From the NCBI GenBank assembly GCA_026395915.1, contig JAPLXU010000012.1:8996-72995 (forward strand): 64,000 nt of DNA, read 5' to 3'. Origin of the DNA: Candidatus Nomurabacteria bacterium. GTDB lineage: Bacteria > Patescibacteriota > Minisyncoccia > Phycocordibacterales > UBA9973. The position numbers were made by a program, and so were the translations under genes. Of the stretch, positions 10,008 through 52,902 are shown piece after piece (positions within the stretch are counted from its first letter, which is position 1; every line of letters starts with the position of its first letter). Below the pieces are notes generated by a model. The model searched no databases. It was not told where the DNA came from and saw nothing but the letters and a program-made list of their open reading frames with translations.

Positions 10008-12905
10008 ATGATATCCCGGATATATGTGATGCCTAAGAAGATTGAGAATAAGGCAGATTCGTATCTTATCGACTCGAAATTATCCAAAAAAGAGCTTCAA
10101 AAACTCGCTGAGGCTCTCGCGAATCCCATTTTAGAAAATTATTATATCGATAGCTTTCCGACAAAAGAACTTTCTTTGAAATTTTCTTATGCGATTGAGA
10201 TAGGATTTTTACCAGGTGTCACAGACAATGTCGGCCAAACAGTCAAAGAAATTGCGACCGATCTTTTTCACTTGAAAAAAAGTTCTGATTTTCACGTTTA
10301 CACTTCTAAAATTCTGTTTGTTGAGTCAAACAAACTTGCTGATGCTCAAAAAATAGCTATGACTCTACATAATCCGCTTATCGAGAGAGCTTTTATCGCG
10401 AAAGTAGAAAATAAAAGTATGAGTTTGCCTATGAAAGCTCCAAAAGTGGTTCTCGAAAAAAAGAAGCCGGTCATAAATGTATTGTTTGAAGTCGAAGACG
10501 AAGAACTCATAAAAATCGGCAGGGAAGGAATAATGGACGAAAACGGCGGACGCAGAGGGCCACTCGCGCTTGATCTAGACTCGATGAAAGTTATCAAAAC
10601 GCATTTTGAAAAATTAAAAAGAAATCCGACGGATATCGAATTGGAATCTCTAGCGCAAACTTGGTCTGAACATTGCAAACACACGATTTTTGCTAATCCG
10701 ATAGACGATATTAAAGATGGTTTGTATAAAACTTATATAAAGGGAGCGACAAATTTGATACGTGAGAAAAAAGGAAAAAAAGATTTTTGTGTCTCTGTTT
10801 TCAGCGATAATTCTGGCGGAATAGTTTTTGATGACGATTATCTAATCACTCACAAAGTCGAGACGCACAATAGTCCTTCGGCCCTTGATCCCTTCGGCGG
10901 AGCGATCACAGGAATCGTCGGAGTCAATCGCGACACGATCGGTTTCGGTTTGGGCGCCAAGCCTGTGGCAAATGTTTACGGATTTTGTTTTGGTTTTCCC
11001 GATGATGAAAGAAAATTTTTTAGAGATAAAAATTTAACACAGCCTATGCTTTCGTCGAGAAGAATTATTGACGGGGTGATAAAAGGCATCAACGTCGGAG
11101 GCAATTGTTCCGGTATACCGACCCTCTCCGGTTTTGTAAAATTTGATGATCGTTATCGGGGAAAGCCTTTGGTATTTGCCGGAACTGTTGGTTTGATCCC
11201 AAGAAAATTAAATGGGAGAGAAATGCACGAAAAAAGAGCTCGAGCGGGGGATTACATTGTCGTCGTAGGCGGTAGAGTCGGCAAAGATGGCATTCATGGA
11301 GCAACTTTTTCTTCTGTTGTTATGGATTCGAATTCTCCGGCGACCGCAGTGCAAATAGGCGACCCGATCACTCAGAAAAAATTAAGCGATGCCATAGTCA
11401 AAGAGGCGCGCGATTTAGATTTGTATAACAGCATCACGGACAACGGCGCAGGTGGACTTTCTTGTTCCGTGGCGGAAATGGCAAAAGAATGCGGTGGCGC
11501 GAAAGTTTTTTTGGATAAAGCTCCACTCAAATATCCCGGCCTTCAGCCATGGGAAATTTGGATTTCAGAATCCCAAGAGCGGATGACCTTATCAGTTCCG
11601 AAAGGAAAATGGGGAAAGTTTCAAAAATTGATGGAAAGCCGAGGCGTAGAAGCGACTGTGATTGGAGAATTCACAAATTCAGGAAAATGTATTGTCGAGT
11701 GGAAAGGCAAAGTTATAATGAATATTGACCTTGAATTTTTGCATAATGGTTTGCCGAAACACAATTTAATTACTAGTTCTGTCATGCAGACCCCTCCCAA
11801 CCCTCCCCTTATCAAGGGGAGGGCGAAGGGTGAGATGTACACAAAAATTTTTGAAAATTTACTTGCAGACAAAAATATCAGCGGATTTTCTTTCATCTCT
11901 GAGCAATATGATCATGAAGTACAAGGGTCTTCAGTATTAAAACCACTCTCTGGTCCTGGCAAGATAAACACCGACGCGCAAGTCTTTTGTCCTGTTCTTA
12001 ATTCTAAAAAAGGAGTCGTTCTTTCATCTGGAATTTGTCCTTCGTATGGAGACGTCAGTACGTACCACATGGCAACTTGCGCGCTCGATACTGCCGTACG
12101 AAATGCTATTGCTTGCGGTGGGACTCTTTCTCATTTAGCAATTTTGGATAATTTTTGTTGGTGTTCATCTAATGATCAAAAGCGTTTGGCTCAACTTGTA
12201 GAATCTGTGAAAGCTTGTTACGACGGAGCCGTAAGTTATGGTACTCCGTTTATTTCGGGCAAGGATAGCATGTTCAACGACTTCAAGGGTTATGACGAGA
12301 AAGGTAATCCTGTTGCTATTTCTATTCCGCCAACTTTACTTATTTCCGCTATTAGCGTTATGCCTGATATCTATAAAACTGTTTCACCTGAATTTAAAAA
12401 TAGCGGAGACGCGATTTATCTGTTGGGAGAAACGCACGACGAGCTCGGTGTTCCAAAAGTTGATTTTGAAAAAAATTTAAAAACATATTTAGCTCTTGAG
12501 AAGGCGATTCAGAAAGAATTAGTAGCTTCTTCGATTTCTATAACTTCAGGAGGATTTGCTGTAGCGCTTGCTAAAGCATGTGTTGGGGGAATGTTAGGCT
12601 GTAAAGTTTCCTTAAACCAGATAGCGCTTAAAGCGCTATCTGTGGAAACTAAACTTTTTTCTGAAAGTCAGGGCAGAATCTTAGTATCGGTGTCCCTGAA
12701 AAAGACTAAACAATTCGAAAAACTTTGCGCAAGTGTTGCTTTTACGAAACTGGGAAAAACTAATAAAAGTCCTGCCCGCAATGCTTTGCATAACAATGCA
12801 GGCGGGGGTAGAATCACAATAATGGATGGCAAAGATAAAATAGTCGAAACGAACGTCAAAAAACTTCATAAAATTTATCACAATTTTTCGGACGAAATGA
12901 AATAA
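10008..12905 (+). CDS. purL: phosphoribosylformylglycinamidine synthase, PurS-PurL fusion (FGAM synthase II with N-terminal tandem PurS-like domains)
   Basis: N-terminal PurS-like signatures ('LANPILENYYI' and 'LHNPLIERAFI'), then the PurL core with 'HNSPSALDPFGGAITGIVGVNRD'. 965 aa. Carries two in-frame GC-rich inserts (11788-11836 and 12771-12808). Confidence 0.85.
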   Translation: MISRIYVMPKKIENKADSYLIDSKLSKKELQKLAEALANPILENYYIDSFPTKELSLKFSYAIEIGFLPGVTDNVGQTVKEIATDLFHLKKSSDFHVYTSKILFVESNKLADAQKIAMTLHNPLIERAFIAKVENKSMSLPMKAPKVVLEKKKPVINVLFEVEDEELIKIGREGIMDENGGRRGPLALDLDSMKVIKTHFEKLKRNPTDIELESLAQTWSEHCKHTIFANPIDDIKDGLYKTYIKGATNLIREKKGKKDFCVSVFSDNSGGIVFDDDYLITHKVETHNSPSALDPFGGAITGIVGVNRDTIGFGLGAKPVANVYGFCFGFPDDERKFFRDKNLTQPMLSSRRIIDGVIKGINVGGNCSGIPTLSGFVKFDDRYRGKPLVFAGTVGLIPRKLNGREMHEKRARAGDYIVVVGGRVGKDGIHGATFSSVVMDSNSPATAVQIGDPITQKKLSDAIVKEARDLDLYNSITDNGAGGLSCSVAEMAKECGGAKVFLDKAPLKYPGLQPWEIWISESQERMTLSVPKGKWGKFQKLMESRGVEATVIGEFTNSGKCIVEWKGKVIMNIDLEFLHNGLPKHNLITSSVMQTPPNPPLIKGRAKGEMYTKIFENLLADKNISGFSFISEQYDHEVQGSSVLKPLSGPGKINTDAQVFCPVLNSKKGVVLSSGICPSYGDVSTYHMATCALDTAVRNAIACGGTLSHLAILDNFCWCSSNDQKRLAQLVESVKACYDGAVSYGTPFISGKDSMFNDFKGYDEKGNPVAISIPPTLLISAISVMPDIYKTVSPEFKNSGDAIYLLGETHDELGVPKVDFEKNLKTYLALEKAIQKELVASSISITSGGFAVALAKACVGGMLGCKVSLNQIALKALSVETKLFSESQGRILVSVSLKKTKQFEKLCASVAFTKLGKTNKSPARNALHNNAGGGRITIMDGKDKIVETNVKKLHKIYHNFSDEMK

Positions 12906-12960
12906 TAAATAAAACAATACTCAAACTTAGCGATAGCAGAATTTGAGTATAGATAATAAA

Positions 12961-14625
12961 ATGGATCAAGAAATAAAAAATTGTAAACAATGTAAAAAAG
13001 ATTTCGTCATTGAGCCGGACGATTTTGGATTCTATGAAAAAATGAAGGTGCCTCCTCCTGTTTTTTGTCCTGAATGCCGACAACAACAGAGAATACTTCA
13101 TCGAAATTTCAAAACTTTATACAAAAGACCTTCGAGCAAGTCCGGTGAAATGATTATTTCAATGTACAATCCCGACGTTCCTTTTCCTGTCTATGACATT
13201 TCCGAGTGGTGGGGAGACGATTGGGAAGCCTCGTCATACGCGATGGATTTGGATTTATCCATTCCTTTCGTAAAACAAATGGATGAGCTTTTCAAAAAAG
13301 TTCCCCATTTCTCCTTGATGAACACCAAAAGCACGAATTGCGAATATTCAAACATGACTTTGCGTTCAAATAATTGCTATCTGATCTTTGGATGCATTGA
13401 CGATGAAAACTGCGATTACGGCCATATCGTCTGGAGTTCTACCGATTGCACCGACAACTTATATGTTTATAAATGCGAGCTTTGTTACGAATGCATGGAT
13501 TGCATTGGATCTAATAGATTGATTTATTCTGAGGAATGCGAAGCATGTGTCGACTCTATCGGTCTTTTTGATTGTCGTGGTTGTACTAATTGCATAGGTT
13601 GTGTCGGTTTGCGACAGCAGTCTCACAAAATTTTCAATCAACCTGTCACAAAAGAAGAATATCAAGAATTTCTACGCAACTATCCGCTCAATAAAAAAGA
13701 AAGCATAGAATATATTTTGGAAAAAAGGGAGGAACTCAGAAAAAAAATTCCGACTCGCGCGGTTTACGGTTCGCATAATACAAATGTTTCCGGAGATCAT
13801 ATATACAATGCTCACAATGTTCATTATTCTTTTGATATAAAAGGCGGAGAGAATAGTAAATTTTGTTTCACGGCAAAAGAAAATAACGAAGTTTATGATG
13901 GGTCTTTTACTATTGAAAATGAATTCAGTTATCAAATTTTAACTTGCGCCAATAGTCATAACGTGTTTTTTTCACATCTTTTAACTGATTGTAATGAGGG
14001 ATACTATTCCCAATTCTGCTTTAATTCAAAAAATATTTTCGGCTGTATGGGCTTGAGAAATAAGCAATATTGCATTTTGAATAAACAGTACACAAAAGAA
14101 GAATATGAAAAACTTATGCCACAAATCATTGAAAATATGAAAAAAACCGGAGACTGGGGCAATTTCTTTCCGATTTGGATGAGTCCATTCGCGTACAACG
14201 AATCAATCACAAATGAATATATGCCATTAACAAAAAAACAGGCGTTGGATCAAGGTTTTTCTTGGCGAGACGATATTCCAAGTACGACAGGAAAAGAAAA
14301 CTGCGCTTATGAAGACTTACCAAAAGATCCGAAAGAATACAGTGATGAAAAACTTTTGGATAAAATTTTGAAATGCGAGTCTTGCGGGAAAAATTACCGC
14401 TTCATATCTAGGGAAATTGGTTTCTATAAGAGAATGGGCTTGGCGCTTCCGTCGAAATGTTCCAATTGTCGCCATCAGAGACGAATGGATACTCGTAATA
14501 AAAGGGAATTGAATGATTCAACTTGCGCGTCGTGTGGTATTGAAATCGAGACTACTTTTTCAAAAGAAAAGCAAGAAGTATATAAAATTTACTGCGAGAA
14601 ATGTTATCAAAGAGAAATATACTAA
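12961..14625 (+). CDS. cysteine-rich protein, paralogue 1 of a 4-member family (duplicated N/C-terminal zinc-ribbon-like modules plus internal CxxCxxCxxC repeats)
   Basis: The ATG at 12961 is preferred over the TTG at 12943 because it aligns with the paralogue N-termini (..C-x2-C-KKDF-I-E-DDF-FYEK-VP-P-FCP-CR..). Ends ..YCEKCYQREIY. Confidence 0.7.
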   Translation: MDQEIKNCKQCKKDFVIEPDDFGFYEKMKVPPPVFCPECRQQQRILHRNFKTLYKRPSSKSGEMIISMYNPDVPFPVYDISEWWGDDWEASSYAMDLDLSIPFVKQMDELFKKVPHFSLMNTKSTNCEYSNMTLRSNNCYLIFGCIDDENCDYGHIVWSSTDCTDNLYVYKCELCYECMDCIGSNRLIYSEECEACVDSIGLFDCRGCTNCIGCVGLRQQSHKIFNQPVTKEEYQEFLRNYPLNKKESIEYILEKREELRKKIPTRAVYGSHNTNVSGDHIYNAHNVHYSFDIKGGENSKFCFTAKENNEVYDGSFTIENEFSYQILTCANSHNVFFSHLLTDCNEGYYSQFCFNSKNIFGCMGLRNKQYCILNKQYTKEEYEKLMPQIIENMKKTGDWGNFFPIWMSPFAYNESITNEYMPLTKKQALDQGFSWRDDIPSTTGKENCAYEDLPKDPKEYSDEKLLDKILKCESCGKNYRFISREIGFYKRMGLALPSKCSNCRHQRRMDTRNKRELNDSTCASCGIEIETTFSKEKQEVYKIYCEKCYQREIY

Positions 14626-14664
14626 AACATATTTCAGCTATAGCGTAAATGTGTAAATCGGAAA

Positions 14665-16410
14665 ATGAAAGAAGAAAATGAAAACAGAATATGCCAGAAC
14701 TGTAAAAAAGACTTTATCATTGAGTCGGATGATTTTCGATTTTATGAAAAGATTAAAATGCCTGCGCCGACTTTTTGTCCCAATTGTAGATTTCAAAGAC
14801 GGCTGCTTTTTAGAAATAACAGAGTTTTTTACAGACGAGAATGTGCTTTGTGTAGAAAGTCGCTATTAAGTGTTTATAATACAGAAAGGCCGTACATAAT
14901 TTATTGTCGTGATTGTTGGTTTTCAGATAAATGGGATCCAATGAGTTACGGACGTGAATATGATTTTTCTGTTCCATTTTTAAACCAATTTCGATCCTTA
15001 CAGTCAAAAGTTCCGAAGGCTAATCTTAATCAAACCAATTTTATTTCAAGTGATTATTGTAACTATGGTTACGATTTTAGAGAATGTTATTTATTGTTTG
15101 GAGGAAAAAATAATGAAAGAGTCTATTTTGGTAACCAAATTTTAGATTCTCGTGATTCGTTGGATATGTCTTTTTCTGAAAAAATAGAATTGAGCTATGA
15201 AAATTTAGAATGCCAAAGAGTAAATAAACTATTATTCGGCTTTTATTCCACAGACTGTGTTGAAAGCTCTTATTTAATTGATTGTAAAAATTGCATGAAC
15301 TGTTTCGGTTGCGTTGGGCTAGTAAATAAACAATATTGTATTTTTAATGAACAATACACGAAAGAAGAATATAAAAAATTTATAAATTCGAATGATGCTG
15401 GCAGTTTTAAAAATCATCAGAAATTTCTTGGAAAATTGCAAGAGCTAAAGTTAACTATGCCACATCGTTATGCTCGTATTTATAAATCAGTCAATTCTGA
15501 TGGAGACGATCTGTCGGAAGTCAGAAACACACATAATTCTTTTAGTTCCCATAAAGTAGAAAATTCAAAATATTTATTTTTTTGCAGAAATGGAACGAAA
15601 GATTGTTATGATACTTCGTTTCAAGGTTATAATGCTGAACTTCTTTATGAAATTGCCCACGGTTTTGGTGGATCAAATGGAGCTTTTGGTGTCAGAAACT
15701 TTAATAATCAAAATACATGTTACGTTGATGAATGCCAAAATTGCCTAAATGTTTTTGGCTGTGAAGGTCTCACAAAAAAACAATACTGCATTTTAAACAA
15801 ACAATACACGAAAGAGGAATATGAAGAACTTGTCCCGAAAATTATAAAACACATGAGCGATATGCCTTATATTGATCAAAAAGGCAGAGTTTATAAATAT
15901 GGAGAATTTTTCCCGAACGATCTGTCTCCATTTGCTTATAACGAAAGTATAGTGCAAGAATATTTTCCATTAACTAAAGAAGAAGCTTTGAAACATGGGT
16001 ATATGTGGAAAGATAGTGCGACAAGAAATTATAAAATAGATATTGAAAATGAGGATATACCAGATAATATTAAAGATGTTGAAGATGGTATAATAAACAA
16101 AGTGATTGCTTGTGAACATCATGGTAAATGTAAAGATCAGTGTACCGAAGCATTCAAAATCATTCCAGAAGAATTTAAATTTTACAAGAGAATGAATCTG
16201 CCCTTGCCGAGATTATGCCCAAATTGTCGACATTATCAGCGTTTAAAGTTTAGAAACCCTCTCAATCTCTGGCATAGAAAATGTATGTGTGACAGAAATA
16301 ACCATTTTCACGGACAGGATAAATGCGAAGTGGAATTTGAAACAAGTTATGCGCCGGATCGCCCAGAGATAGTTTACTGTGAAAAATGTTATCAGCAAGA
16401 AATTTATTAA
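14665..16410 (+). CDS. cysteine-rich protein, paralogue 2 (tandem with paralogue 1)
   Basis: 581 aa. Same architecture and the same C-terminus (..YCEKCYQQEIY). Contains the 'QYCILNKQYTKEEY' repeats. Confidence 0.7.
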   Translation: MKEENENRICQNCKKDFIIESDDFRFYEKIKMPAPTFCPNCRFQRRLLFRNNRVFYRRECALCRKSLLSVYNTERPYIIYCRDCWFSDKWDPMSYGREYDFSVPFLNQFRSLQSKVPKANLNQTNFISSDYCNYGYDFRECYLLFGGKNNERVYFGNQILDSRDSLDMSFSEKIELSYENLECQRVNKLLFGFYSTDCVESSYLIDCKNCMNCFGCVGLVNKQYCIFNEQYTKEEYKKFINSNDAGSFKNHQKFLGKLQELKLTMPHRYARIYKSVNSDGDDLSEVRNTHNSFSSHKVENSKYLFFCRNGTKDCYDTSFQGYNAELLYEIAHGFGGSNGAFGVRNFNNQNTCYVDECQNCLNVFGCEGLTKKQYCILNKQYTKEEYEELVPKIIKHMSDMPYIDQKGRVYKYGEFFPNDLSPFAYNESIVQEYFPLTKEEALKHGYMWKDSATRNYKIDIENEDIPDNIKDVEDGIINKVIACEHHGKCKDQCTEAFKIIPEEFKFYKRMNLPLPRLCPNCRHYQRLKFRNPLNLWHRKCMCDRNNHFHGQDKCEVEFETSYAPDRPEIVYCEKCYQQEIY

Positions 16411-16422
16411 GTAATTTAAAAA

Positions 16423-17199
16423 ATGAAAAGCAAAAAACCAAAAATCATAATTTTATCCGGCTATGGACTAAATTGCGAAGAAGAAACGAAGTTCGCTTTT
16501 GAATCGGCGGGAGGGGAAGCAGACATCGTGCATATCAATGATCTCATCGCCAAACCGAAAATGCTCTCCAAATATCAAATCTTGGTTTTTCCGGGTGGGT
16601 TTTCTTATGGCGACGATACGGGTAGCGGAAAAGCTTACGCTAATAAACTAAAAAATCACTTATCAAAAGAGCTCGCAGAATTTTTGTCACGCGACACTCT
16701 CGCGATAGGCATTTGCAATGGATTTCAAATAATGACTAATCTCGGAATTCTGCCCAGAGCGTTAGCCCACAACAAGAACGGAAAGTACATTGATAGGTGG
16801 GTGGATTTAGAAACCCATTCTGCAAGGCAAGACCTTGCAGAAAGTCCATGGTTAAAAGGTATTGAGAAGATATCTCTTCCGATAGCGCATGGCGAAGGGC
16901 ACTACGTCGCTTCTAAAAAAGATTATGAGAATTTGAAAAAGAATAATCAAATAGCTTTCACTTATGCAAAAGGGGAGATTTACAAATTTCAAAATCTGGA
17001 ATACAATCCAAATGGTTCTGACTATGACATCGCAGGAGTTTTGGCATATAATGGGAGAGTCCTCGGAATGATGCCTCATCCGGAGCGAGCAATGTTTTCG
17101 CATCAGAGTCCTTTGTGGTATAAAAACAAAAAAGTATCGAAGGAAGGCGCAGGTTTGCAGATTTTTAAAAACGCAGTTAATTATTTTTTGAAAAAATAA
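16423..17199 (+). CDS. purQ: phosphoribosylformylglycinamidine synthase I, glutaminase subunit
   Basis: Class-I glutamine amidotransferase with 'AIGICNGFQ' catalytic Cys. Placed between purL and purF. Confidence 0.8.
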   Translation: MKSKKPKIIILSGYGLNCEEETKFAFESAGGEADIVHINDLIAKPKMLSKYQILVFPGGFSYGDDTGSGKAYANKLKNHLSKELAEFLSRDTLAIGICNGFQIMTNLGILPRALAHNKNGKYIDRWVDLETHSARQDLAESPWLKGIEKISLPIAHGEGHYVASKKDYENLKKNNQIAFTYAKGEIYKFQNLEYNPNGSDYDIAGVLAYNGRVLGMMPHPERAMFSHQSPLWYKNKKVSKEGAGLQIFKNAVNYFLKK

Positions 17200-18597: not shown

Positions 18598-20626
18598 CTC
18601 AAAAGAAAAATTAAAATTGGCAGTTCTTATTTCCAACGCAGGCACTGGCACAAACCTTCAGGCCATCATTGATGGAATCGAGAAAGACAAAATCAAGATG
18701 GAAATTTGCGCAGTAGTTTCTGATGTTTCCGATGCGGCTGGTTTGGATCGAGCGCGAAAACATAATTTAAAAATCGAAATCTGTCCGACGAAAGAAGCCC
18801 TGCTTCCGCTTTTGCAAAGATTAAATCCGGACTTTGTAGCTCTCGCCGGCTGGAAGCAGATTATTTTAGACGAAGTGATTCTCGCTTTTCCGAATAAAAT
18901 TTTGAATTTGCATCCTGGCTTGATTCCAGATAGCATTGACGGCATAGTAAAAAATCCTGATGGCACTGAAGCGCTTTGGAACAAGGGCAAGTTGACAAAT
19001 AAAGCTATTCAAAATTTCTTGGACAAAAAAGCTACTTTTGCCGGTTCAAGTATTCATTTCTTGACACTTAATTTTGATTTTGGACCGGTTTTAGGTAGAA
19101 CTTTTGAAAAAATTCAAGCCGGAGACACAGTGGATTCTCTATATGCTAGATTAAAAAATAAGGAGAACGAGCTTTATGAAGAAGTTTTAGAAAAATTAAC
19201 CTCACCCCAGCCCTCTCCTGAGAGGAGAGGGGGAATAAATAGACAAAAAATTTTAATAATTGGAAGCGGGGGACGAGAACATGCTATCGGCTGGAAAGTA
19301 GCGCAGTCACCTAGAGCAGGGCAGATTTTTTTTGCACCCGGAAATGCTGGAACGGCGGAACTGGGAACGAATGTAGCAATAGATGCGAAAGATATTTCTA
19401 AACTTTTAGAATTTGCGAAAAATGGAAAAATTAATCTGACTTTGGCTTTACCAGACGATCCGCTCGCTCTCGGCATTGTGGACGAATTTCAAAAAGCTGG
19501 TTTGCGAATCTGGGGTCCTACAAAAAGAGCCGCGCAGATCGAATGGTCAAAGGCGTTTTCAAAAGATTTCATGCGTCGACACAATTTGCCGACTGCGAAA
19601 TTTGAGATATTCAGCGATTTTGAAAAGGCGAAAAATTACGTAAAAAATCAATCATTGCCTATTGTCATCAAAGCAAGCGGGCTCGCTTTAGGAAAAGGCG
19701 TGATTATTTGTGAAACTATAAAAGAAGCGAACGAAACGCTTGAAAATATACTTGTTAAAAAAATATTTGGAGACGCGGGAAACGAAGTTGTGATAGAGGA
19801 GTTTCTTGTCGGACCAGAGATTTCCATTCATGCGTTTTCTGACGGAAAAGATTACAAAATGTTTCCGCCATCACAAGATCATAAAAAAGTCGGAGAAGGG
19901 AACACTGGACCGAATACGGGAGGCATGGGGACGATCAGCCCTTTACCGTTCGTGGATGAAAAACTTTTGAAAACTATCGAGGACACGATCGTTGCGCCGA
20001 CTTTGAAAGCTCTAGCCAAGGACAACGCGCCTTTTGTCGGAGTGCTCTATCCCGGGTTAATACTTACCAAAGATGGGCCGAAAATTTTAGAATACAACGC
20101 GCGCTTCGGTGATCCGGAAACGCAGACATACATGCGACTCTTGGAAACTGACTTACTAGATATTTTCGACGCATGCATTGATGGCACGCTGAAAAATTTA
20201 GAAATCAAATGGAGACCAAAGTCAGCCTGCACGATAGTGCTAGCTTCGGGAGGTTATCCGGGAAAATATGAAAAGGGAAAAGAAATTTTGGGAATTTCTC
20301 CCCTCCTTGTGGAGGAGGGGGTAGGGGGTGGTGATTCAGACCCCCTCTCAAATCTCCCCCTTAGCAAGGGGAGAGGTTCTCAACCACCTCGCCTTTCAGG
20401 CTCTCCTCCTTCGAAAGGAGGAGAGGACGTCGTCATCTTCCACGCTGGCACAAAGATGGAAAATAAAAATTTAGTAACGAATGGCGGAAGAGTGCTCGGA
20501 GTTTCGGCTGTGGGTAAAAATTTGCAAGAAGCGCTCAAAAAAGCCTATAAAGCAATAGAAAAAATTTCTTTTGAAGGAATGCAGTATAGAAAAGATATAG
20601 GCAAATCGGCGTTGGAATTGAAATAA
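18578..20626 (+). CDS. purD: bifunctional GAR transformylase / GAR synthetase (PurN-PurD fusion)
   Basis: N-terminal PurN pattern ('LAVLISNAGTGTNLQAII', 'NLHPGLIP'), then PurD ('ILIIGSGGREHAIGWK', ATP-grasp). Overlaps purF by 20 nt. Contains two in-frame GC-rich hairpin inserts (19199-19235 and ~20293-20430). Confidence 0.8.
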   Translation: MMSQKNNSKEKLKLAVLISNAGTGTNLQAIIDGIEKDKIKMEICAVVSDVSDAAGLDRARKHNLKIEICPTKEALLPLLQRLNPDFVALAGWKQIILDEVILAFPNKILNLHPGLIPDSIDGIVKNPDGTEALWNKGKLTNKAIQNFLDKKATFAGSSIHFLTLNFDFGPVLGRTFEKIQAGDTVDSLYARLKNKENELYEEVLEKLTSPQPSPERRGGINRQKILIIGSGGREHAIGWKVAQSPRAGQIFFAPGNAGTAELGTNVAIDAKDISKLLEFAKNGKINLTLALPDDPLALGIVDEFQKAGLRIWGPTKRAAQIEWSKAFSKDFMRRHNLPTAKFEIFSDFEKAKNYVKNQSLPIVIKASGLALGKGVIICETIKEANETLENILVKKIFGDAGNEVVIEEFLVGPEISIHAFSDGKDYKMFPPSQDHKKVGEGNTGPNTGGMGTISPLPFVDEKLLKTIEDTIVAPTLKALAKDNAPFVGVLYPGLILTKDGPKILEYNARFGDPETQTYMRLLETDLLDIFDACIDGTLKNLEIKWRPKSACTIVLASGGYPGKYEKGKEILGISPLLVEEGVGGGDSDPLSNLPLSKGRGSQPPRLSGSPPSKGGEDVVIFHAGTKMENKNLVTNGGRVLGVSAVGKNLQEALKKAYKAIEKISFEGMQYRKDIGKSALELK

Positions 20627-20721: not shown

Positions 20722-22455
20722 TTACGGAGTACGTATCGACGACGATGATGGCAAACCCTCGATGCCCTCAGCGTTTTTCCAGTCTGGGTCAGCTAGACTT
20801 GATATTCCAAAACTATTTGGCGACCAAATAAGTGCTCCACCGCCACATTGTTCAACGTTGTTGGCAGTGTCTATTAGTCCGCCACACCCATTACAACAGT
20901 CACCAAGGAGCTGACTTCCCATCCAAGCGAACTGGTTGGTGACTTGAACTTCACCTCTCAATTCGAAAAAGTAGGTTGCCCCCGCCGAAATAACGATTGG
21001 TGTTTGGGCGTACATGTTTAGTACTCCCGGCGAACCGTTGAAGTTCGTAGCCGAGAATTTTTCGCCGGTGGCCAGATTGTAAAGGTTTATGTTTTGAATT
21101 GTCGCCCCTTGAAAGTTAATCCAAAGAGCAATCATGTGAATGCTTATTGAGCCACTCACATTTGCAGAAACCTTGAATTGAAGCAACCGGCCATCCATCA
21201 TTCCAGTCGACGGCAGGGTTTCCAGTGTGAATGTCGGAAATGACTTGAACACCCAAGCTCCTCCGGGCGTACGTCCATCTCCGCAGGCTTGAATTACTCG
21301 GCCTGAGTCCATTCCAATGCCAACTGTGCGGTCAGGATTGGAATCGTCAATTGCAACACCAACTTGGTGTCCGGAAACGGTTAAAGCTTCGCTGATACCG
21401 ATCGATGAAAGGTCTGCCTTGATTGTCAAGGTTTTACTTGCATTCTTCGGAATAGTGAAATGAGTTAATGGGACAAACATGTTCGTGCTCGCTGGAAAGT
21501 AACCATATCCAATTTGGGTGTTGCCATCCCAAAGGCTCAGTCTTTCGATGCAGGCCGGATCGCCGTTTATATGCAACCCAACACTTGTGAGCGACATATC
21601 CTCGTAAGACGCGCTGAACTTGAACACGCTCAATGTCACGTTAGCGCTTCCCGCTGCCACCATCTGAACATAAGGGGTCGAAGCATCGGCCTCGAATGTC
21701 AATTGGCAAGGCAAAGATTCGCGAAAGCGATAAAACGCGTGAGCATTTGTGCCGACAGGCAACCAAAGAGCAGTGTTTGTTGATGCCGCCGTAACCATGT
21801 CGCCTAACACATGCCAGTTGATGAGGTCATAGGATTCCTCGATTTGATATCGATAGCCAGTTGTCCCGTGGATAACAAAGCTTCCCATACCGCTTGTAAT
21901 CGTGAAATCTAGTTTCCCCCGATTGATCGAGGGCAACCCAAGGATTTGGATAAACGCCAGAGTCGTTGCCACCGGGGTGACTTCAACAGCGTTTCCGCTT
22001 GTTATGCCCACACATGTGATCGGGCTACCCAAATTCACCGCAAATTCCCCATGAGCATCGGACAAAATGTCGCACTTGAGTACGAGCGTTTTCACTGTAC
22101 CTTGAGTGATTATCAACATATTGCCGAAGTTGTAGGTGTATGGGAGTGTCGCTGCCATCGTGCTCAGTTGTCCAACTTCCGGATCAAACAAAGACCAGTT
22201 GACCATGAAGTCAGGCTGGCATCCGTTTTGCACTCGCAGGCCAAGCGGCATGGAAGTCACTTTGACATCCTCGTCTGACCCCATCGCGTCAAACGTGATG
22301 AGGTAAACCGTCTGCCCAGGCGCTGAGCCCGGAATCATCGGTTCGAGATTTGGTTGGTTGTTAATTGCCACATTGAGAGTTCCAGCCCCGAGGCTGGTCA
22401 ACATGGAACAAACGAGCACGAAGCTCGCGGTGAGACTGATAAGCATTTTCTTCAT
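20722..22455 (-). CDS. secreted hypothetical protein with N-terminal signal peptide; GC ~50% (higher than genome)
   Basis: 'MKKMLISLTASFVLVCSMLTSLGAG' looks like a signal peptide. 577 aa, Cys-rich C-terminal tail. No recognisable family. Confidence 0.5.
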   Translation of the reverse strand: MKKMLISLTASFVLVCSMLTSLGAGTLNVAINNQPNLEPMIPGSAPGQTVYLITFDAMGSDEDVKVTSMPLGLRVQNGCQPDFMVNWSLFDPEVGQLSTMAATLPYTYNFGNMLIITQGTVKTLVLKCDILSDAHGEFAVNLGSPITCVGITSGNAVEVTPVATTLAFIQILGLPSINRGKLDFTITSGMGSFVIHGTTGYRYQIEESYDLINWHVLGDMVTAASTNTALWLPVGTNAHAFYRFRESLPCQLTFEADASTPYVQMVAAGSANVTLSVFKFSASYEDMSLTSVGLHINGDPACIERLSLWDGNTQIGYGYFPASTNMFVPLTHFTIPKNASKTLTIKADLSSIGISEALTVSGHQVGVAIDDSNPDRTVGIGMDSGRVIQACGDGRTPGGAWVFKSFPTFTLETLPSTGMMDGRLLQFKVSANVSGSISIHMIALWINFQGATIQNINLYNLATGEKFSATNFNGSPGVLNMYAQTPIVISAGATYFFELRGEVQVTNQFAWMGSQLLGDCCNGCGGLIDTANNVEQCGGGALIWSPNSFGISSLADPDWKNAEGIEGLPSSSSIRTP

Positions 22456-29111: not shown

Positions 29112-29675
29112 ATGGAAATGGCAAAGGATCTGAAAGTTGGCATAATAATGGGTTCGGATTCTGATTTGGAAGTAATGTCGGAAGCGGCAAAAGTGCTTGA
29201 AGAATTTGGTGTCTCCTATGAAATTACCGTTGTTTCAGCGCATCGAAGCCCAAATCTTGCGCACAAATACGCAACCAGCGCAAAAGATAAAGGAATCAAA
29301 ATTATCATCGCTGGAGCAGGCGGAGCAGCGCATCTCGCTGGAGTAGTGGCATCGCTCACGAGCTTGCCCGTCATCGGTGTGCCTATTAAAACAAAAAATC
29401 TAGACGGACTGGATTCACTTCTTTCAACAGTCGGAATGCCTCCCGGAGTGCCCGTCGCAACTGTCGGAATAAATTCTGCAAAAAATGCTGGGTTGCTAGC
29501 TATCCAGATGCTTGCGCTTTCAGATAAAAATCTCGATGACAAATTGGTGGCATATAAAAATAAACTTGAAAAAGACACAAAAATAAAAAGCGAAAAACTT
29601 CTGAAAGTCGGATATAAAAAATATTTACCTGCCCGCAATGCTTCAGGCATAGCTGATGCAGGCGGGAAGAAATAA
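29112..29675 (+). CDS. purE: N5-CAIR mutase / AIR carboxylase catalytic subunit, with a C-terminal extension carrying a GC-rich repeat
   Basis: 'GIIMGSDSD' is the PurE pattern, together with 'IIAGAGGAAHLAG'. The C-terminal 13 codons (29628-29666) are a copy of the 'PARNA..AGG' GC-rich element. Confidence 0.85.
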   Translation: MEMAKDLKVGIIMGSDSDLEVMSEAAKVLEEFGVSYEITVVSAHRSPNLAHKYATSAKDKGIKIIIAGAGGAAHLAGVVASLTSLPVIGVPIKTKNLDGLDSLLSTVGMPPGVPVATVGINSAKNAGLLAIQMLALSDKNLDDKLVAYKNKLEKDTKIKSEKLLKVGYKKYLPARNASGIADAGGKK

Positions 29676-29677
29676 AA

Positions 29678-30835
29678 ATGAGCAAATTGACTAAAAAAAA
29701 GATTTATTCACAGGATGGGGTAGATGTCGAAGAAGAATCTTTGTTTAGTAGTTTTGCAGGATCTGTCTGCAAGGCTAGTTACAATAATTCACCTTTTGTT
29801 GAAATTCATGATTTATCGAATGGCAATTTTCGTGGCCCTCGACCTTTCACTTTTAAAAATCTTCCAGAAGGATATTTTATTGAAGCTTCAACTGACGGTA
29901 TAGGAACCAAAGGCATTATAATTGATGCCGCGAAAACTCATCATTTGGCAGCTTATGATTTGATAGCTATGACAGCGAGCGATATCACTCGTTACGGAGG
30001 TATCCCTTTGATCTGTGTGAATGTCTTTGACACTTCTTCTATAGGTAACAAAGGAGATCTCGTCAGTAAAACATACAAAAACGCAATTTCAGGTTTAGGA
30101 AAAGTTGCAAAAGAAGAAAAAATTGTTGTGCTAAAAGGGGAGACAGCTCAAATGGGAGACGCTCTCGGTTCGGAAATTGTTGATTCAAAAACTAAATTAA
30201 ATTGGTCGGGGACAATGATCGGCGCTTATCACAAAGATAAGATGATTACTGGTGACAAACTGGTTCCCGGGCAAATAATTATCGGACTGAAAGAAGATGG
30301 CTTTCGTTGCAACGGCATTAGTTCTGTCAGAAAAGCATTGAGAGAAAAATTCGGCAAAAAATGGTGGAAGAATCCGAAAGCTCAAAAGAGCATAAAAGAA
30401 GCAGCGACTCCGTCAGTACTCTATGATACTTTTGTAAACACGCTTCACGGCTGGTTCAACAAAGATTTTAAACCGGAAATCGCTATTCATTCTGTCGTTC
30501 ATCTTTCAGGTGGAGCCTTCAAAGAAAAACTTGCAAAAGACATTCTTTTCCCTAAAAAACTTTCTGCTGAACTTTTTGATTTATGGGAACCACCGCAGAT
30601 CATGAAAAATTGCGCCATGTGGCGTGATATCACTGACGAAGAATTTTATGAAGTCTGGCACGGAGGACAAGGCATGTTGTTAGTTGTTGACGAAAAAGAC
30701 GCAGCTTATTGCGTAAAAAGAGCAAAGAATTTTAAAATTAAAGCAAAGATCGTAGGTCGAATTACAAAAGAGGAAAAACCTCGAGTTTCAATAGTTTCTA
30801 AATTAAACGAGGGAAAAATTATTATTTATAAATAA
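29678..30835 (+). CDS. purM: phosphoribosylformylglycinamidine cyclo-ligase (AIR synthetase)-like
   Basis: N-terminal 'YSQDGVDVEEE' resembles the PurM 'Y..AGVDID' pattern. Two-domain PurM-like length. Placed within the pur cluster. Confidence 0.7.
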   Translation: MSKLTKKKIYSQDGVDVEEESLFSSFAGSVCKASYNNSPFVEIHDLSNGNFRGPRPFTFKNLPEGYFIEASTDGIGTKGIIIDAAKTHHLAAYDLIAMTASDITRYGGIPLICVNVFDTSSIGNKGDLVSKTYKNAISGLGKVAKEEKIVVLKGETAQMGDALGSEIVDSKTKLNWSGTMIGAYHKDKMITGDKLVPGQIIIGLKEDGFRCNGISSVRKALREKFGKKWWKNPKAQKSIKEAATPSVLYDTFVNTLHGWFNKDFKPEIAIHSVVHLSGGAFKEKLAKDILFPKKLSAELFDLWEPPQIMKNCAMWRDITDEEFYEVWHGGQGMLLVVDEKDAAYCVKRAKNFKIKAKIVGRITKEEKPRVSIVSKLNEGKIIIYK

Positions 30836-33446: not shown

Positions 33447-35204
33447 ATGACTTTTAGAAATTTTTTAAAATTCGCCAATCGACATAAAAATAATGGGCAT
33501 GATTTTGTTGAACCGGACGAAATTTTTCTCGATTCAAAAAACTTACAAAACTTTGACCGCCAGCAATTTGAGGGCAGAATAGAAAAACCTATTTCAAAGA
33601 GAACTATTGTTTTTCTTGGTGCCTTCTTTTTTCTTATGATAATTATTTTTGGAACTCGGCTAATAGATCTCCAGGTGAAAAATGGAGACAGCTATAGGCA
33701 AAGAAGTGAAAACAATATTTTGCAAAAAGTGAATATTTTCGCCGAAAGGGGAGCCATCTATGATCGAAACAAAAAAGAACTGGTTTGGAATGAAAAAAGC
33801 GACAATGAGACAGGGGATCTATCTGAATTGTCATATACTCGCGCCTACCTATCTCCAGGATTTTCTCATGTGCTTGGTTATGTGAGTTATCCAACGAAGG
33901 ATCATGCTGGGAACTATTGGCAAGATGAATTCATTGGAAAGGACGGTCTCGAAAAAAAATATAATGACAAGATAAATGGCGAAAACGGTTCAAAGATAAT
34001 TGAAACTGACGCCAGAGGAAATATTCATTCTGAAAATATTGTTAATATGCCGAATCGTGGAAGCGATCTAGTAACGAGCATTGACTCTCGAATTCAGACT
34101 GAATTGTTTACTCTTATTAGAAACCTATCCGAAAGTAATAATTTTACAGGCGGTGCAGGAGTTATGATGAACGCGCAGAATGGAGAGATATTAGCTTCTA
34201 CTAGCTTTCCCGAGTATGACTCTGGGGTCCTTTCTTTAGGCAAAGATTCAAAAAAAATTAGCACATATGTGACTGACAAAAGAAAATTTTTTTTAGATAG
34301 AACTATTTCAGGGCTTTATACCCCTGGCTCTATCGTTAAACCTTTTTTTGCTCTAGGCGCTTTGACAGAAGGTGTAATTGATCAAAATAAAAAAATTCTT
34401 TCGACAGGTTCTATTTCCATTCCGAATCCATATTTTCCTGATCAAAAAACAGTTTTCAAGGACTGGCGAGTAAACGGCTGGACGAATATGGCTGAAGCGT
34501 TGGCTGTCTCTTCGGACGTCTATTTTTATGAAATTGGAGGAGGTTTTGAAGACCAAAAAGGACTTGGTATCACAAATATTGAAAAATACGCGAATCTTTT
34601 TGGCTTTGGTGATAGGACAGGAGTTGATCTTCCGGACGAAACAAAAGGCACGATTCCTAGTCCAGGATGGAAGGCGTTGAACTTCAAAGGAGATGCTTGG
34701 CGCATCGGAGACACTTATCATACAGCGATAGGCCAGTATGGATTTCAAGTTACTCCGATGGAAATGGCGCGAGCCGTCTCTGCTATCGCTAACTATGGCA
34801 AACTTCTGACTCCACATTTCCTACTGAATGACACCGAAATGCCTGCCCGCAATGCTTCGCATAGCGATGCAGGCGGGGAAAATCAAGTTACTCAAATAAA
34901 CATACCAAAAGAGTACTTTGATGTAGTTCACGAAGGAATGAGGCAAGCAGTAACAGACGGAACAGCAACTTCACTTAACGTGCCTTATGTAAAAGTTGCA
35001 GTTAAAACTGGTACAGCTCAAATCGGAGTAGCAAATAATAAAGTAAACTCCTGGGTTATCGGTTTCTTTCCGTATGAAAATCCAAAATACGCGTTTGCGG
35101 TAATGATGGAAGCCGGTCCGACAACAAATAGCGCAAACGCATCTACCATAATGCGTGAACTTTTAGACTGGATGTCCACCAACACTCCAGAGTATTTTCA
35201 ATAG
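33447..35204 (+). CDS. mrdA: class B penicillin-binding protein (PBP2-like peptidoglycan transpeptidase)
   Basis: 'SIVKPF' (SxxK), 'KTGTAQ' (KTG) and an N-terminal TM. Contains an in-frame GC-rich 'PARNASHSDAGGE' insert (34842-34877). Confidence 0.8.
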   Translation: MTFRNFLKFANRHKNNGHDFVEPDEIFLDSKNLQNFDRQQFEGRIEKPISKRTIVFLGAFFFLMIIIFGTRLIDLQVKNGDSYRQRSENNILQKVNIFAERGAIYDRNKKELVWNEKSDNETGDLSELSYTRAYLSPGFSHVLGYVSYPTKDHAGNYWQDEFIGKDGLEKKYNDKINGENGSKIIETDARGNIHSENIVNMPNRGSDLVTSIDSRIQTELFTLIRNLSESNNFTGGAGVMMNAQNGEILASTSFPEYDSGVLSLGKDSKKISTYVTDKRKFFLDRTISGLYTPGSIVKPFFALGALTEGVIDQNKKILSTGSISIPNPYFPDQKTVFKDWRVNGWTNMAEALAVSSDVYFYEIGGGFEDQKGLGITNIEKYANLFGFGDRTGVDLPDETKGTIPSPGWKALNFKGDAWRIGDTYHTAIGQYGFQVTPMEMARAVSAIANYGKLLTPHFLLNDTEMPARNASHSDAGGENQVTQINIPKEYFDVVHEGMRQAVTDGTATSLNVPYVKVAVKTGTAQIGVANNKVNSWVIGFFPYENPKYAFAVMMEAGPTTNSANASTIMRELLDWMSTNTPEYFQ

Positions 35205-52350: not shown

Positions 52351-52902
52351 CTATTCTCCTATTTTATTTTCCTCTTCTAAACTTTCTGAGGCAACATTAA
52401 TAGAATTATTCACTTCACCATAATCCGGCAATTCATCTACAGATTTTATACCCATATACGATAACAATTCAAAGCTGGGTTTGTAAATATAACGCCTGCT
52501 ATCTTTTGGATCAAGTATTCTTTCTATCAATCCGCGAACAGATAATGCTCGCAAAGTGAAACTGGAATTGACTCCCCTTATATAATCGATCTCCGCTCGG
52601 TTCGCACCATTTTTATAAAGAATAATGGATAATGTTTCCAAACTTGCTTTTGAAAGTTCTTTGTTCAGTTCTTCTTTTTGCAATTCTTCAAACAAACTTG
52701 ATAATTCTGGCGCTGTGCCAAGCGCAATATCAGAATCTTTTTCAATCAATACTATTCCTCTCTCTTTTAAATTGTTTTTTAATCTAAGAACGCCTTCATT
52801 CATTTCCGCCTCCTCAACTTTTAAAATCTCTGCAAGTTTCTTTCGCGACATTGGTTCTCCTTTCCAAAACAGTATAGCTTCTATTTTTGATTCTAAATTC
52901 AT
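52351..52902 (-). CDS. scpB: segregation and condensation protein B
   Basis: 'IEAILFWKGEPMSRKKLAEIL' winged-helix pattern. 183 aa. Directly downstream of scpA. Confidence 0.85.
   Translation of the reverse strand: MNLESKIEAILFWKGEPMSRKKLAEILKVEEAEMNEGVLRLKNNLKERGIVLIEKDSDIALGTAPELSSLFEELQKEELNKELSKASLETLSIILYKNGANRAEIDYIRGVNSSFTLRALSVRGLIERILDPKDSRRYIYKPSFELLSYMGIKSVDELPDYGEVNNSINVASESLEEENKIGE

Follow-up and report, generated by a model that had tools for sequence, protein, structure and literature searches.

Two sets of described proteins are among the closest to the genes analyzed here, a pair of large cysteine-rich paralogues (P1 and P2) encoded between purSL and purQ in a stretch of 64,000 nucleotides from a Candidatus Nomurabacteria genome (GenBank assembly GCA_026395915.1, contig JAPLXU010000012.1, positions 8,996 to 72,995; hereafter the window). 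The first comprises the treble-clef domains zf_Tbcl, zf_Tbcl_2 and TIGR04272, which resemble the terminal modules of P1 and P2 and of two further copies in the window (P3 and P4), but which are small domains of about 40-50 aa with no function attached and account for less than 30% of a family protein. The second comprises the orphan VirD4-like type IV coupling proteins (T4CPs) of the Candidate Phyla Radiation (CPR), of which 5,713 were reported in 2,918 genomes, 148 of them near virB4, and for which a possible exaptation was raised (bioRxiv 10.1101/2025.01.22.634366). Proteins of this kind are recurrent neighbours of the family to which P1 and P2 belong, and their long forms share the zf_Tbcl_2 finger with it; on the other hand, P1-P4 are not ATPases, and that paper names no such neighbour family. 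As described below, the robust gene-neighbourhood association of this family is with VirD4-like ATPases, and not with pur genes.

P1 (12961-14625, + strand, ATG start, 554 aa) and P2 (14665-16410, + strand, 581 aa) align end to end by BLASTP with 38% identity (E 1e-130), and each contains 34 Cys (5.9-6.1%), compared to 1.3% in nine further proteins encoded in the window. An earlier interpretation of the letters and translated open reading frames (ORFs), referred to here as the sequence-only reading, had described two large Cys-rich paralogues at this place, and the two ORFs confirm it. P1 is identical to the NCBI protein P0121, named "zinc-ribbon domain containing protein", which together with the orthologues backs the ATG at 12961, the alternative TTG at 12943 being unsupported; P2 is identical to the NCBI protein P0001, hypothetical protein NTZ87_01565 of a Candidatus Nomurabacteria metagenome-assembled genome. 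The flanking genes, which do not belong to the family, are a purS-purL fusion upstream (purSL, 10008-12905, + strand; AIRS and FGAR-AT domains in orthologues) and purQ downstream (16423-17199, + strand; GATase_5 in orthologues). The gaps are short, as had been claimed, although the proposed range of 13-55 nt has to be replaced by measured values of 55 nt (purSL-P1), 39 nt (P1-P2) and 12 nt (P2-purQ). Because the four genes share one strand, are separated by only 12-55 nt, and no + strand terminator-like site was found in the gaps, P1 and P2 are almost certainly co-transcribed with the pur genes, as the sequence-only reading had proposed; in relatives, a family gene even overlaps the purSL stop by 4 nt.

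To establish the extent of the family, a profile search was run exhaustively across 1.84 billion representative sequences, which recovered 5,172 clusters (50% identity) at E<=1e-3 and 2,192 at E<=1e-30, with lengths of about 545-600 aa; the best 150 clusters were all 530-602 aa long and matched end to end. Word-indexed searches with P1 and P2 gave at least about 7,000 matches each, and at least 583 encoding stretches were present in GTDB species representatives. Orthologues at 57-83% identity, each annotated as hypothetical or as "zinc-ribbon domain containing protein", came from Nomurabacteria, Paceibacterota, Staskawiczbacteria and unspecified Patescibacteria, and the informative names were Nomura-, Staskawicz-, Giovannoni-, Jorgensen-, Lipton-, Wolfe-, Sungii- and Parcubacteria and Minisyncoccia (the Parcubacteria group of NCBI). 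The family thus appears restricted to Parcubacteria/Paceibacteria-type Patescibacteria. Some records carry family genes (42-75% identity) under the labels Burkholderiales, Bacteroidales, Gammaproteobacteria or "uncultured Candidatus Saccharibacteria" (third-party annotation), examples being loci L034 (JAMPXW010000002.1), L049 and L073; the visible context is Parcubacteria-like (e.g. in L034), and these labels probably reflect mis-binning or coarse naming.

A sample of 81 family-anchored loci (1,345 kb) showed that family genes are commonly multi-copy, with 2-9 copies in 48 of the loci, usually head to tail, and with 108 of 111 consecutive pairs on the same strand. Locus L061 carries nine full-length copies within 21 kb, of which the copies fill 16 kb. 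Identity between paralogues of one array is only 30-50%, and near-identical copies were not observed. Matches of 2.0-2.4 kb in tblastn searches, considered as possible longer architectures, turned out to be merged adjacent tandem copies.

When the neighbouring ORFs of these 81 phylogenetically related loci were clustered de novo, the commonest partner was a VirD4/TrwB-like ATPase (Pfam TrwB_AAD_bind, TraG-D_C, DUF87), with 57 ORFs in 33 of the loci. More than a half of these (36 of 57) immediately adjoin a family gene, all of them on the same strand and at a median distance of 124 bp, and the family genes involved are spread over 26 of 62 groups (50% identity), with a 71% relative of P3 among them. 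A control set of 813 kb of Parcubacterial DNA anchored on purQ contained no T4CP-like ORF, versus the 57 found in 1,345 kb around family genes, and pur genes stood beside the family gene in only 6 of the 81 loci. The ATPases fall into two size classes, of about 440-520 aa and about 620-835 aa, and the long ones carry a zf_Tbcl_2 finger (Pfam E 1e-14), the CxxC-x15-19-CxxC motif being present in 12 ORFs. The possibility that the long T4CPs are related to the family over a greater length was considered and discarded, as the similarity is limited to this finger and is weak by hhalign. In addition, 11-15 loci contain recurrent genes for DnaK, DnaJ, cysteinyl-tRNA synthetase and an AI-2E transporter, typically in the order dnaK-T4CP-family-family-T4CP-dnaJ-family, a recurrence that is in part shared synteny of related genomes. 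Two side observations concern the ATPase genes themselves, as seen in L064 (3866-6370 and 17221-18771), L008, L060 and L061: they interrupt the dnaK-dnaJ pair, and they are often preceded by a gene for a multi-pass membrane protein of about 470 aa with no Pfam match (e.g. L064:546-1961).

Such tight same-strand adjacency to T4CP-like genes might also be expected if the family proteins were cargo, that is, substrates handed by VirD4-like coupling proteins to a Patescibacterial type IV secretion system (T4SS) for delivery into a host. The invariance of the extreme C terminus, as expected of a T4SS signal, and the presence of DnaK/DnaJ nearby in 14-15 loci would fit this role. However, only the 148 of 5,713 CPR T4CPs cited above lie near virB4 (bioRxiv 10.1101/2025.01.22.634366), among the neighbouring ATPases that were read as examples most have no N-terminal membrane anchor, and the conserved C terminus belongs to a zinc finger. 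Moreover, tightly folded multi-zinc proteins would be poor substrates for translocation, and effectors usually evolve fast, which this family does not. We therefore consider secretion as cargo a highly unlikely function.

The window contains a second pair of family genes, P3 (50602-52302, - strand; 566 aa, 42 Cys) and P4 (48781-50553, - strand; 590 aa), in tandem and directly downstream of scpB (52351-52902), near vanY and mraY-ftsW-murG. Both were detected over their full length by tblastn, P3 with 39% identity to P1 and 42% to P2, and P4 with 46% to P2, within an overall range of 34-46% between the two pairs. A 585-aa ORF at 33447, regarded as a candidate third paralogue after purB, as found in locus L001, encodes instead a penicillin-binding protein (PBP).

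To analyze the place of P1 and P2 in the purine operon, we examined an unbiased sample of 80 metagenome loci anchored on purQ genes 71-85% identical to that of the window, in 59 of which the purSL-purQ junction was covered; some of these contigs represent one population sampled repeatedly, so that the counts are not independent. The slot was empty, with purSL abutting purQ, in 24 of the 59 loci, held one full-length member in 27 (12 of P1 type, 13 of P2 type and 2 others), two members in 3 and three members in 2, and contained only truncated remnants in the remaining 3 (L098, L118 and L150). In slots with several members the order fits X (43-45%), P1, P2, Y (39-41%), and the combination of a P1-type and a P2-type gene seen in the window was found in none of the 59. 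The constancy of the order X-P1-P2-Y, together with the decayed remnants, suggests that the slot harbored an ancestral tandem array that underwent differential loss, rather than being the target of repeated insertions.

Orthologues of P2 were delimited by average-linkage clustering at 55% identity, which produced a group of 16 members in 15 loci, plus the window, at 64-76% identity to P2. Five of the loci show the arrangement purSL-P2-purQ and a sixth guaA-Fic-P2-purH; three others have T4CP-DnaJ-P2-arginase, and the rest are arrays without pur genes. The closest relative of P2 (79%, locus L168) is located in the same frame as in the window, with HAD and CofD genes on one side and PBP, S41 peptidase and L9 genes on the other, but the whole block from glmS to purB, about 28 kb, is missing there and only two family genes remain. 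The closest relative of P1 (83%, L167) lies between CofD and purF, without purSL or purQ at that position, and P1-type orthologues also occur between Mur ligase genes and near rpoB. As a side observation, a Fic-domain gene of another Paceibacterial genome (L001:9393-10004), situated in the guaA-purH section of its pur cluster, shares 4 nt with the beginning of the P2 orthologue.

These distributions bear on the most obvious reading of the locus, in which P1 and P2 would be accessories of purine synthesis: a replacement for PurK, a supplier of CO2 or bicarbonate to a class I PurE, a scaffold for the formylglycinamidine ribonucleotide (FGAM) synthetase formed by PurS-L with PurQ, or regulators of the operon. 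A PurK substitute was considered because the PurE of the window (29112-29675) carries the class I (N5-carboxyaminoimidazole ribonucleotide, N5-CAIR, mutase) signature SAHRSP and GGAAHLAG, and neither the pur cluster (10008-33164) nor the rest of the annotated ORFs in the window include a purK/ATP-grasp gene; unless N5-CAIR is formed non-enzymatically, purK must be located in another part of the genome. Co-transcription between purSL and purQ, and a degree of conservation equal to that of the pur enzymes, would also agree with an accessory role. Against it, the slot is empty in the 24 loci mentioned and decayed in 3, paralogues of P1 type, P2 type or other types are interchangeable in it, and thousands of family members belong to genomes and loci that lack pur genes. 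Likewise, neither an ATP-grasp nor any other enzyme domain was detected in P1 and P2 (Pfam and NCBIfam) or in 79 diverse family members (Pfam), and neither the Pfam Hexapep match nor the 18-residue coils of left-handed beta-helix hexapeptide transferases and gamma-carbonic anhydrases were present. The idea of a PurK substitute or a carbonic-anhydrase-like solenoid was thus rejected on distribution, given the empty slots and the P2 orthologue that is kept without the pur cluster. Because P3 and P4 follow scpB, the family is mostly located away from pur genes, the slot is often empty, the P2 orthogroup also stands behind T4CP-DnaJ, and the 79% orthologue persists where the cluster is missing, P1 and P2 are very unlikely to be components of the purine pathway. 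What pulls in the other direction is the retention of a family gene in 32 of the 59 slots, along with other members at the purN-purD junction and after purB, which keeps a loosely purine-related role conceivable.

A special relation to the purine operon, as hinted at by the setting described in the sequence-only reading, is therefore not sustained, in view of the two copies after scpB and the 24 empty slots. On the other hand, that reading had also asked whether the pair might be missing from the pur operon of every relative, and this is not the case, as occupancy is polymorphic. The position within the operon is accordingly no sign of a purine function, and such a misreading would spread through annotation by gene neighbourhood.

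The same polymorphism raises the question of a selfish or mobile cassette, comparable to free-standing homing endonuclease genes, in which the zinc fingers would serve for DNA recognition. Occupancy of the slot varies among close relatives; members are found inside pur, mur, dnaK-dnaJ and scpB operons and upstream of rpoB, always co-oriented; toxin-antitoxin genes (AbiEii, PIN) and Fic and MerR genes lie inside arrays; and treble-clef fingers are also present in HNH-type nucleases, to which weak matches were obtained among viral models (see below). Nevertheless, searches with Pfam, PHROG and NCBIfam detected no HNH, GIY-YIG, LAGLIDADG, transposase or integrase domain, array paralogues share only 30-50% identity, with no near-identical copies, the slow evolution of orthologues matches that of the neighbouring enzymes, and the order X-P1-P2-Y with its remnants points to vertical inheritance with loss. 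Two sets of patterns run against viral contigs also found no relatives, with limited sensitivity. Composition is equally unremarkable: the GC content at third codon positions (GC3) of P1-P4 is 0.24-0.36, within the range of neighbouring genes, and a horizontal origin by this measure was dropped. The recent insertion of a selfish gene envisaged in the sequence-only reading is thus a poor fit to data that suggest an old array with differential loss, and we regard a mobile cassette as quite unlikely.

The architecture of the proteins was resolved by internal profile comparison and modelling. The N- and C-terminal modules are homologous (P2 residues 11-86 versus 491-577; hhalign 99.4%, E 4.6e-22), upholding the earlier claim that the first recurs at the C terminus, and so are the two central halves (139-242 versus 287-392; 99.7%, E 2.4e-25). 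A terminal module, one at each end, consists of a zf_Tbcl finger (CxxC...CxxC-R-x3-R) followed by a CxxC-x17-CxxC ribbon, and a central unit, present twice, consists of a solenoid, a CxxCxxCxGCxGL cap and a YCIxNxxYTKEEY helix. A small conserved alpha/beta domain (GEFFP..SPFAYNE..EYxP..G..W) precedes the C-terminal fingers. Every motif quoted in the sequence-only reading is present in P1 and P2, including its repeated CxxCxxCxGCxGL-like units, of which the second copy is degenerate, and its middle sequence repeats, which correspond to the YCI(L/F)NxxYTKEEY motif occurring twice per protein. The count of about eight CxxC pairs in the terminal modules fits P2 better than P1: both have six strict CxxC in these modules, to which P2 adds two non-canonical knuckles, whereas P1 has an N-terminal zf_Tbcl, a second N-terminal ribbon that lacks its Cys, and a C-terminal zf_Tbcl plus zf_Tbcl_2.

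In P2 the N-terminal zinc-finger module spans residues 1-90 (14665-14934, + strand, as all the features that follow), with the zf_Tbcl residues C10, C13...C38, C41-R42 and a second ribbon of the CxxC-x17-CxxC type (C59/C62...C80/C83), and was modelled with a predicted local distance difference test (pLDDT) of 79-93. The first beta-solenoid (residues 121-222, 15025-15330), with its 12-residue Cys ladder, is closed by the cap CKNCMNCFGCVGL (15283-15321), and the motif YCIFNEQYTKEEY (15334-15372) opens a long helix. The second, homologous beta-solenoid (residues 269-372, 15469-15780) contains the degenerate cap CQNCLNVFGCEGL (15733-15771) and is followed by the second motif, YCILNKQYTKEEY (15784-15822), in which N378 is invariant and Y381 and Y386 are nearly invariant across the family. 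The alpha/beta domain with its variable linker (residues 401-478, 15865-16098; pLDDT 83-95) leads to the C-terminal zinc-finger module (residues 479-581, 16099-16407), which ends in YCEKCYQQEIY. The finger modules are basic (+7 at the N terminus and +4 at the C terminus), and the solenoids and the alpha/beta domain are acidic.

Within the solenoids Cys positions have a period of 3 residues, their autocorrelation being highest at 12 (0.73), and hydrophobic positions peak at 12 as well (0.45). This periodicity, together with an AlphaFold2 model of P2 of medium confidence (126-sequence alignment; mean pLDDT 82, predicted template modelling score 0.83), leads us to infer that the central regions are narrow Cys-ladder beta-solenoids of 12 residues per turn. 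A comparable protein is the Tenebrio molitor antifreeze protein (Protein Data Bank, PDB, entry 1ezg; PF02420), which has a 12-residue Cys-ladder beta-helix and works alike only in this respect: it is a secreted, disulfide-bonded protein with TCTxSxxCxxAx repeats and a Thr ladder, and the family has no Thr ladder, no secretion and no match to that model. Other narrow beta-solenoids used for comparison were the ryegrass ice-binding protein (3ult), bactofilin (2n3d) and the left-handed beta-helix acetyltransferases. The N terminus is a zinc finger and none of 167 full-length family members contains a transmembrane-like hydrophobic stretch, so that the proteins are soluble and, presumably, cytoplasmic.

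Database searches recognized the terminal fingers and nothing else. PF13451 (zf_Tbcl) matched P1 in two stretches with 34.1 bits (cut-off 24) and P2 with 17.4 bits, below the cut-off; as the N-terminal module of P2 is homologous to its C-terminal module and its Cys are more than 95% conserved, the terminal modules of both proteins can be assigned to zf_Tbcl. PF23477 (zf_Tbcl_2) and TIGR04272 matched P1 below their cut-offs (19.2 bits versus 27, and 15.8 bits versus 36), although zf_Tbcl_2 was found in 31 of 79 diverse members at E<0.01 (best 8.8e-10), and residues 59-83 of P2 conform exactly to CxxC-x17-CxxC. A Pfam scan of the 79 returned zinc-finger domains only, each in 28-31 members at E<0.01. 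No model in Pfam, NCBIfam, PHROGs or PADLOC covers the core of about 400 aa; the best PADLOC match, to a methyltransferase model, had an E of 0.037, and the best of the sequence and profile searches against PDB was a LIM-like half finger (E 0.16). Foldseek of the P2 model found no match in PDB and, among viral models (BFVD), only small zinc-ribbon proteins and weak matches to HNH proteins (E>0.07) at the level of the zinc finger. The family is not described in the searchable literature, and since these searches matched the terminal fingers at most, its core of about 400 residues appears to have no described relative. Thus, the searches through Pfam, PDB and AlphaFold2 plus Foldseek returned no confident match to a characterized family, in line with the sequence-only reading, which had recognized no named family. 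The family and its architecture lie outside known kinds, in the sense of being uncharacterized, and no unprecedented activity is claimed for them.

Conservation differs between regions and levels. Among the 79 diverse members, mean column identity is lowest in the solenoid bodies (0.39-0.44) and highest in the zinc fingers, caps, KEEY helices and alpha/beta domain (0.54-0.64), the alpha/beta region (0.64, with nearly invariant residues) being among the most conserved. Within the P2 orthogroup, by contrast, the solenoid bodies reach 0.78-0.80, equal to the rest of the protein. As the solenoids are the least conserved part family-wide but are conserved among P2 orthologues, the pattern points to a common chassis bearing recognition surfaces that are specific to each paralogue and stable, and not to that of sensors in an arms race. 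P2 orthologues are 64-74% identical, compared to 61-75% for purSL, and because they are conserved like the flanking enzymes, genes of P1 and P2 type are under purifying selection where present, while being individually dispensable to the operon.

The latter pattern argues against an anti-phage or conflict system, in which diversified sensors would cooperate with a HerA/FtsK/VirD4-type ATPase in arrays resembling defence islands. The great diversity of the family, the interspersion of its arrays with toxin-antitoxin genes and DUF87/HerA-TrwB-type ATPases, and its variable presence between relatives would be expected from such a system. In contrast, no PADLOC match was significant, no effector domain (nuclease, NADase or pore-former) was found, recognition surfaces are conserved within orthogroups instead of evolving fast, and the genes lie within core operons and evolve at the pace of housekeeping genes. 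Defence is thus, in our opinion, an unlikely function. As a separate observation, the toxin genes AbiEii and PIN are located inside the family arrays of L064 and L061.

The explanation that we favor has two parts, which we hold with very different confidence. That P1-P4 belong to a large zinc-finger/solenoid family of Parcubacteria-type Patescibacteria, independent of purine synthesis, is in our view highly probable. P1 and P2 appear to be the survivors in the purSL-purQ junction of the old array X-P1-P2-Y, partly or wholly lost in relatives, and to ride as passengers on the transcription of a strong operon of housekeeping genes; the pur position would serve expression only. Other members do likewise in the dnaK-dnaJ, mur, scpB and rpoB neighbourhoods. 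The second part, an adaptor mechanism, is proposed tentatively. The chassis formed by zinc fingers, caps and alpha/beta domain would dock onto a common partner, for which the adjoining orphan, soluble VirD4/TrwB-like hexameric ATPases are the best candidates, docking onto nucleic acid through the basic finger helices being the alternative, and the faces of the solenoids would select a different conserved client for each paralogue group. The family would then constitute an adaptor or receptor set for an exapted ATPase, with a logic like that of F-box proteins. Adaptors of ring ATPases, such as F-box proteins and the accessory or recruiting proteins of T4CPs, offer a functional analogy: they too combine a conserved chassis with paralogue-specific surfaces, occur as many paralogues per genome, and have genes adjoining an ATPase of hexameric type. 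They differ in that no relation in sequence or fold links them to the family.

Extended further, these elements would make up a cytoplasmic machine specific to the lineage, composed of exapted VirD4-like ATPases and adaptors of about ten or more paralogue groups per genome, in which each adaptor has its own protein or nucleic-acid client and P1-P4 are four adaptors hitch-hiking in core operons; this we regard as possible but doubtful. Several points weigh against the adaptor proposal. There is no T4CP-like gene in the window, nor near the copies in the pur slot, so that the link to the ATPases is family-wide and not local. As the loci are phylogenetically related, neither the 33 of 81 loci nor the 36 of 57 adjoining ATPases are independent events. 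The solenoid bodies, which would carry specificity, have a pLDDT of 56-73, compared to 80-96 elsewhere in the model; binding of zinc, or of an Fe-S cluster, by the Cys4 modules is inferred from Cys patterns only; and the adaptor model itself draws on gene neighbourhood, one small shared domain and patterns of conservation. For family description and adaptor mechanism taken together, we would give somewhat less than an even chance, and the probability left over by all these readings belongs to functions that cannot be named.

Patescibacteria (CPR) have genomes of roughly 1 Mb. Thousands of slowly evolving clusters, with up to nine tandem copies at a single locus of such small genomes, represent a large coding investment with conservation like that of core enzymes, and would therefore imply an important, lineage-defining function, for which annotation has so far gone no further than "zinc-ribbon domain containing protein". 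The adjacency to ATPases supplies a concrete candidate partner and makes the role of the possibly exapted CPR ATPases directly testable.

Other features of the purine cluster were noted along the way. PurM (29678-30835, 385 aa) has a weak Pfam AIRS match (E 1e-7 to 1e-8) and is 24% identical to the PurM of close relatives L001 and L082 versus 73% to that of L013, so that two non-orthologous forms of PurM circulate in the clade. An ORF of 577 aa on the - strand (20722-22455), situated between purN-purD and purA, has a signal-peptide-like N terminus and no Pfam match, and is a compositional outlier (GC 0.49 and GC3 0.53, compared to 0.39 for the window), possibly acquired horizontally.

Finally, short GC-rich palindromic hairpin elements were found in frame inside purSL, the C terminus of purE, the PBP gene and purD, at positions 12771-12806, 29628-29666 and 34842-34878, and also at 11803-11821, 19211-19232, 20355-20373 and 20395-20420; P1-P4 contain none. 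Type A, CCTGCCCGCAATGC...GCAGGCGGG, has 3 exact copies versus 0.13 expected, and type B, CTCCCCTT-NNN-AAGGGGAG, has 2 copies versus 0.01 expected. The hairpin at 19211-19232 encodes the peptide SPQPSPERRGG and forms the linker that fuses purN to purD. These hairpins resemble the Rickettsia palindromic elements.

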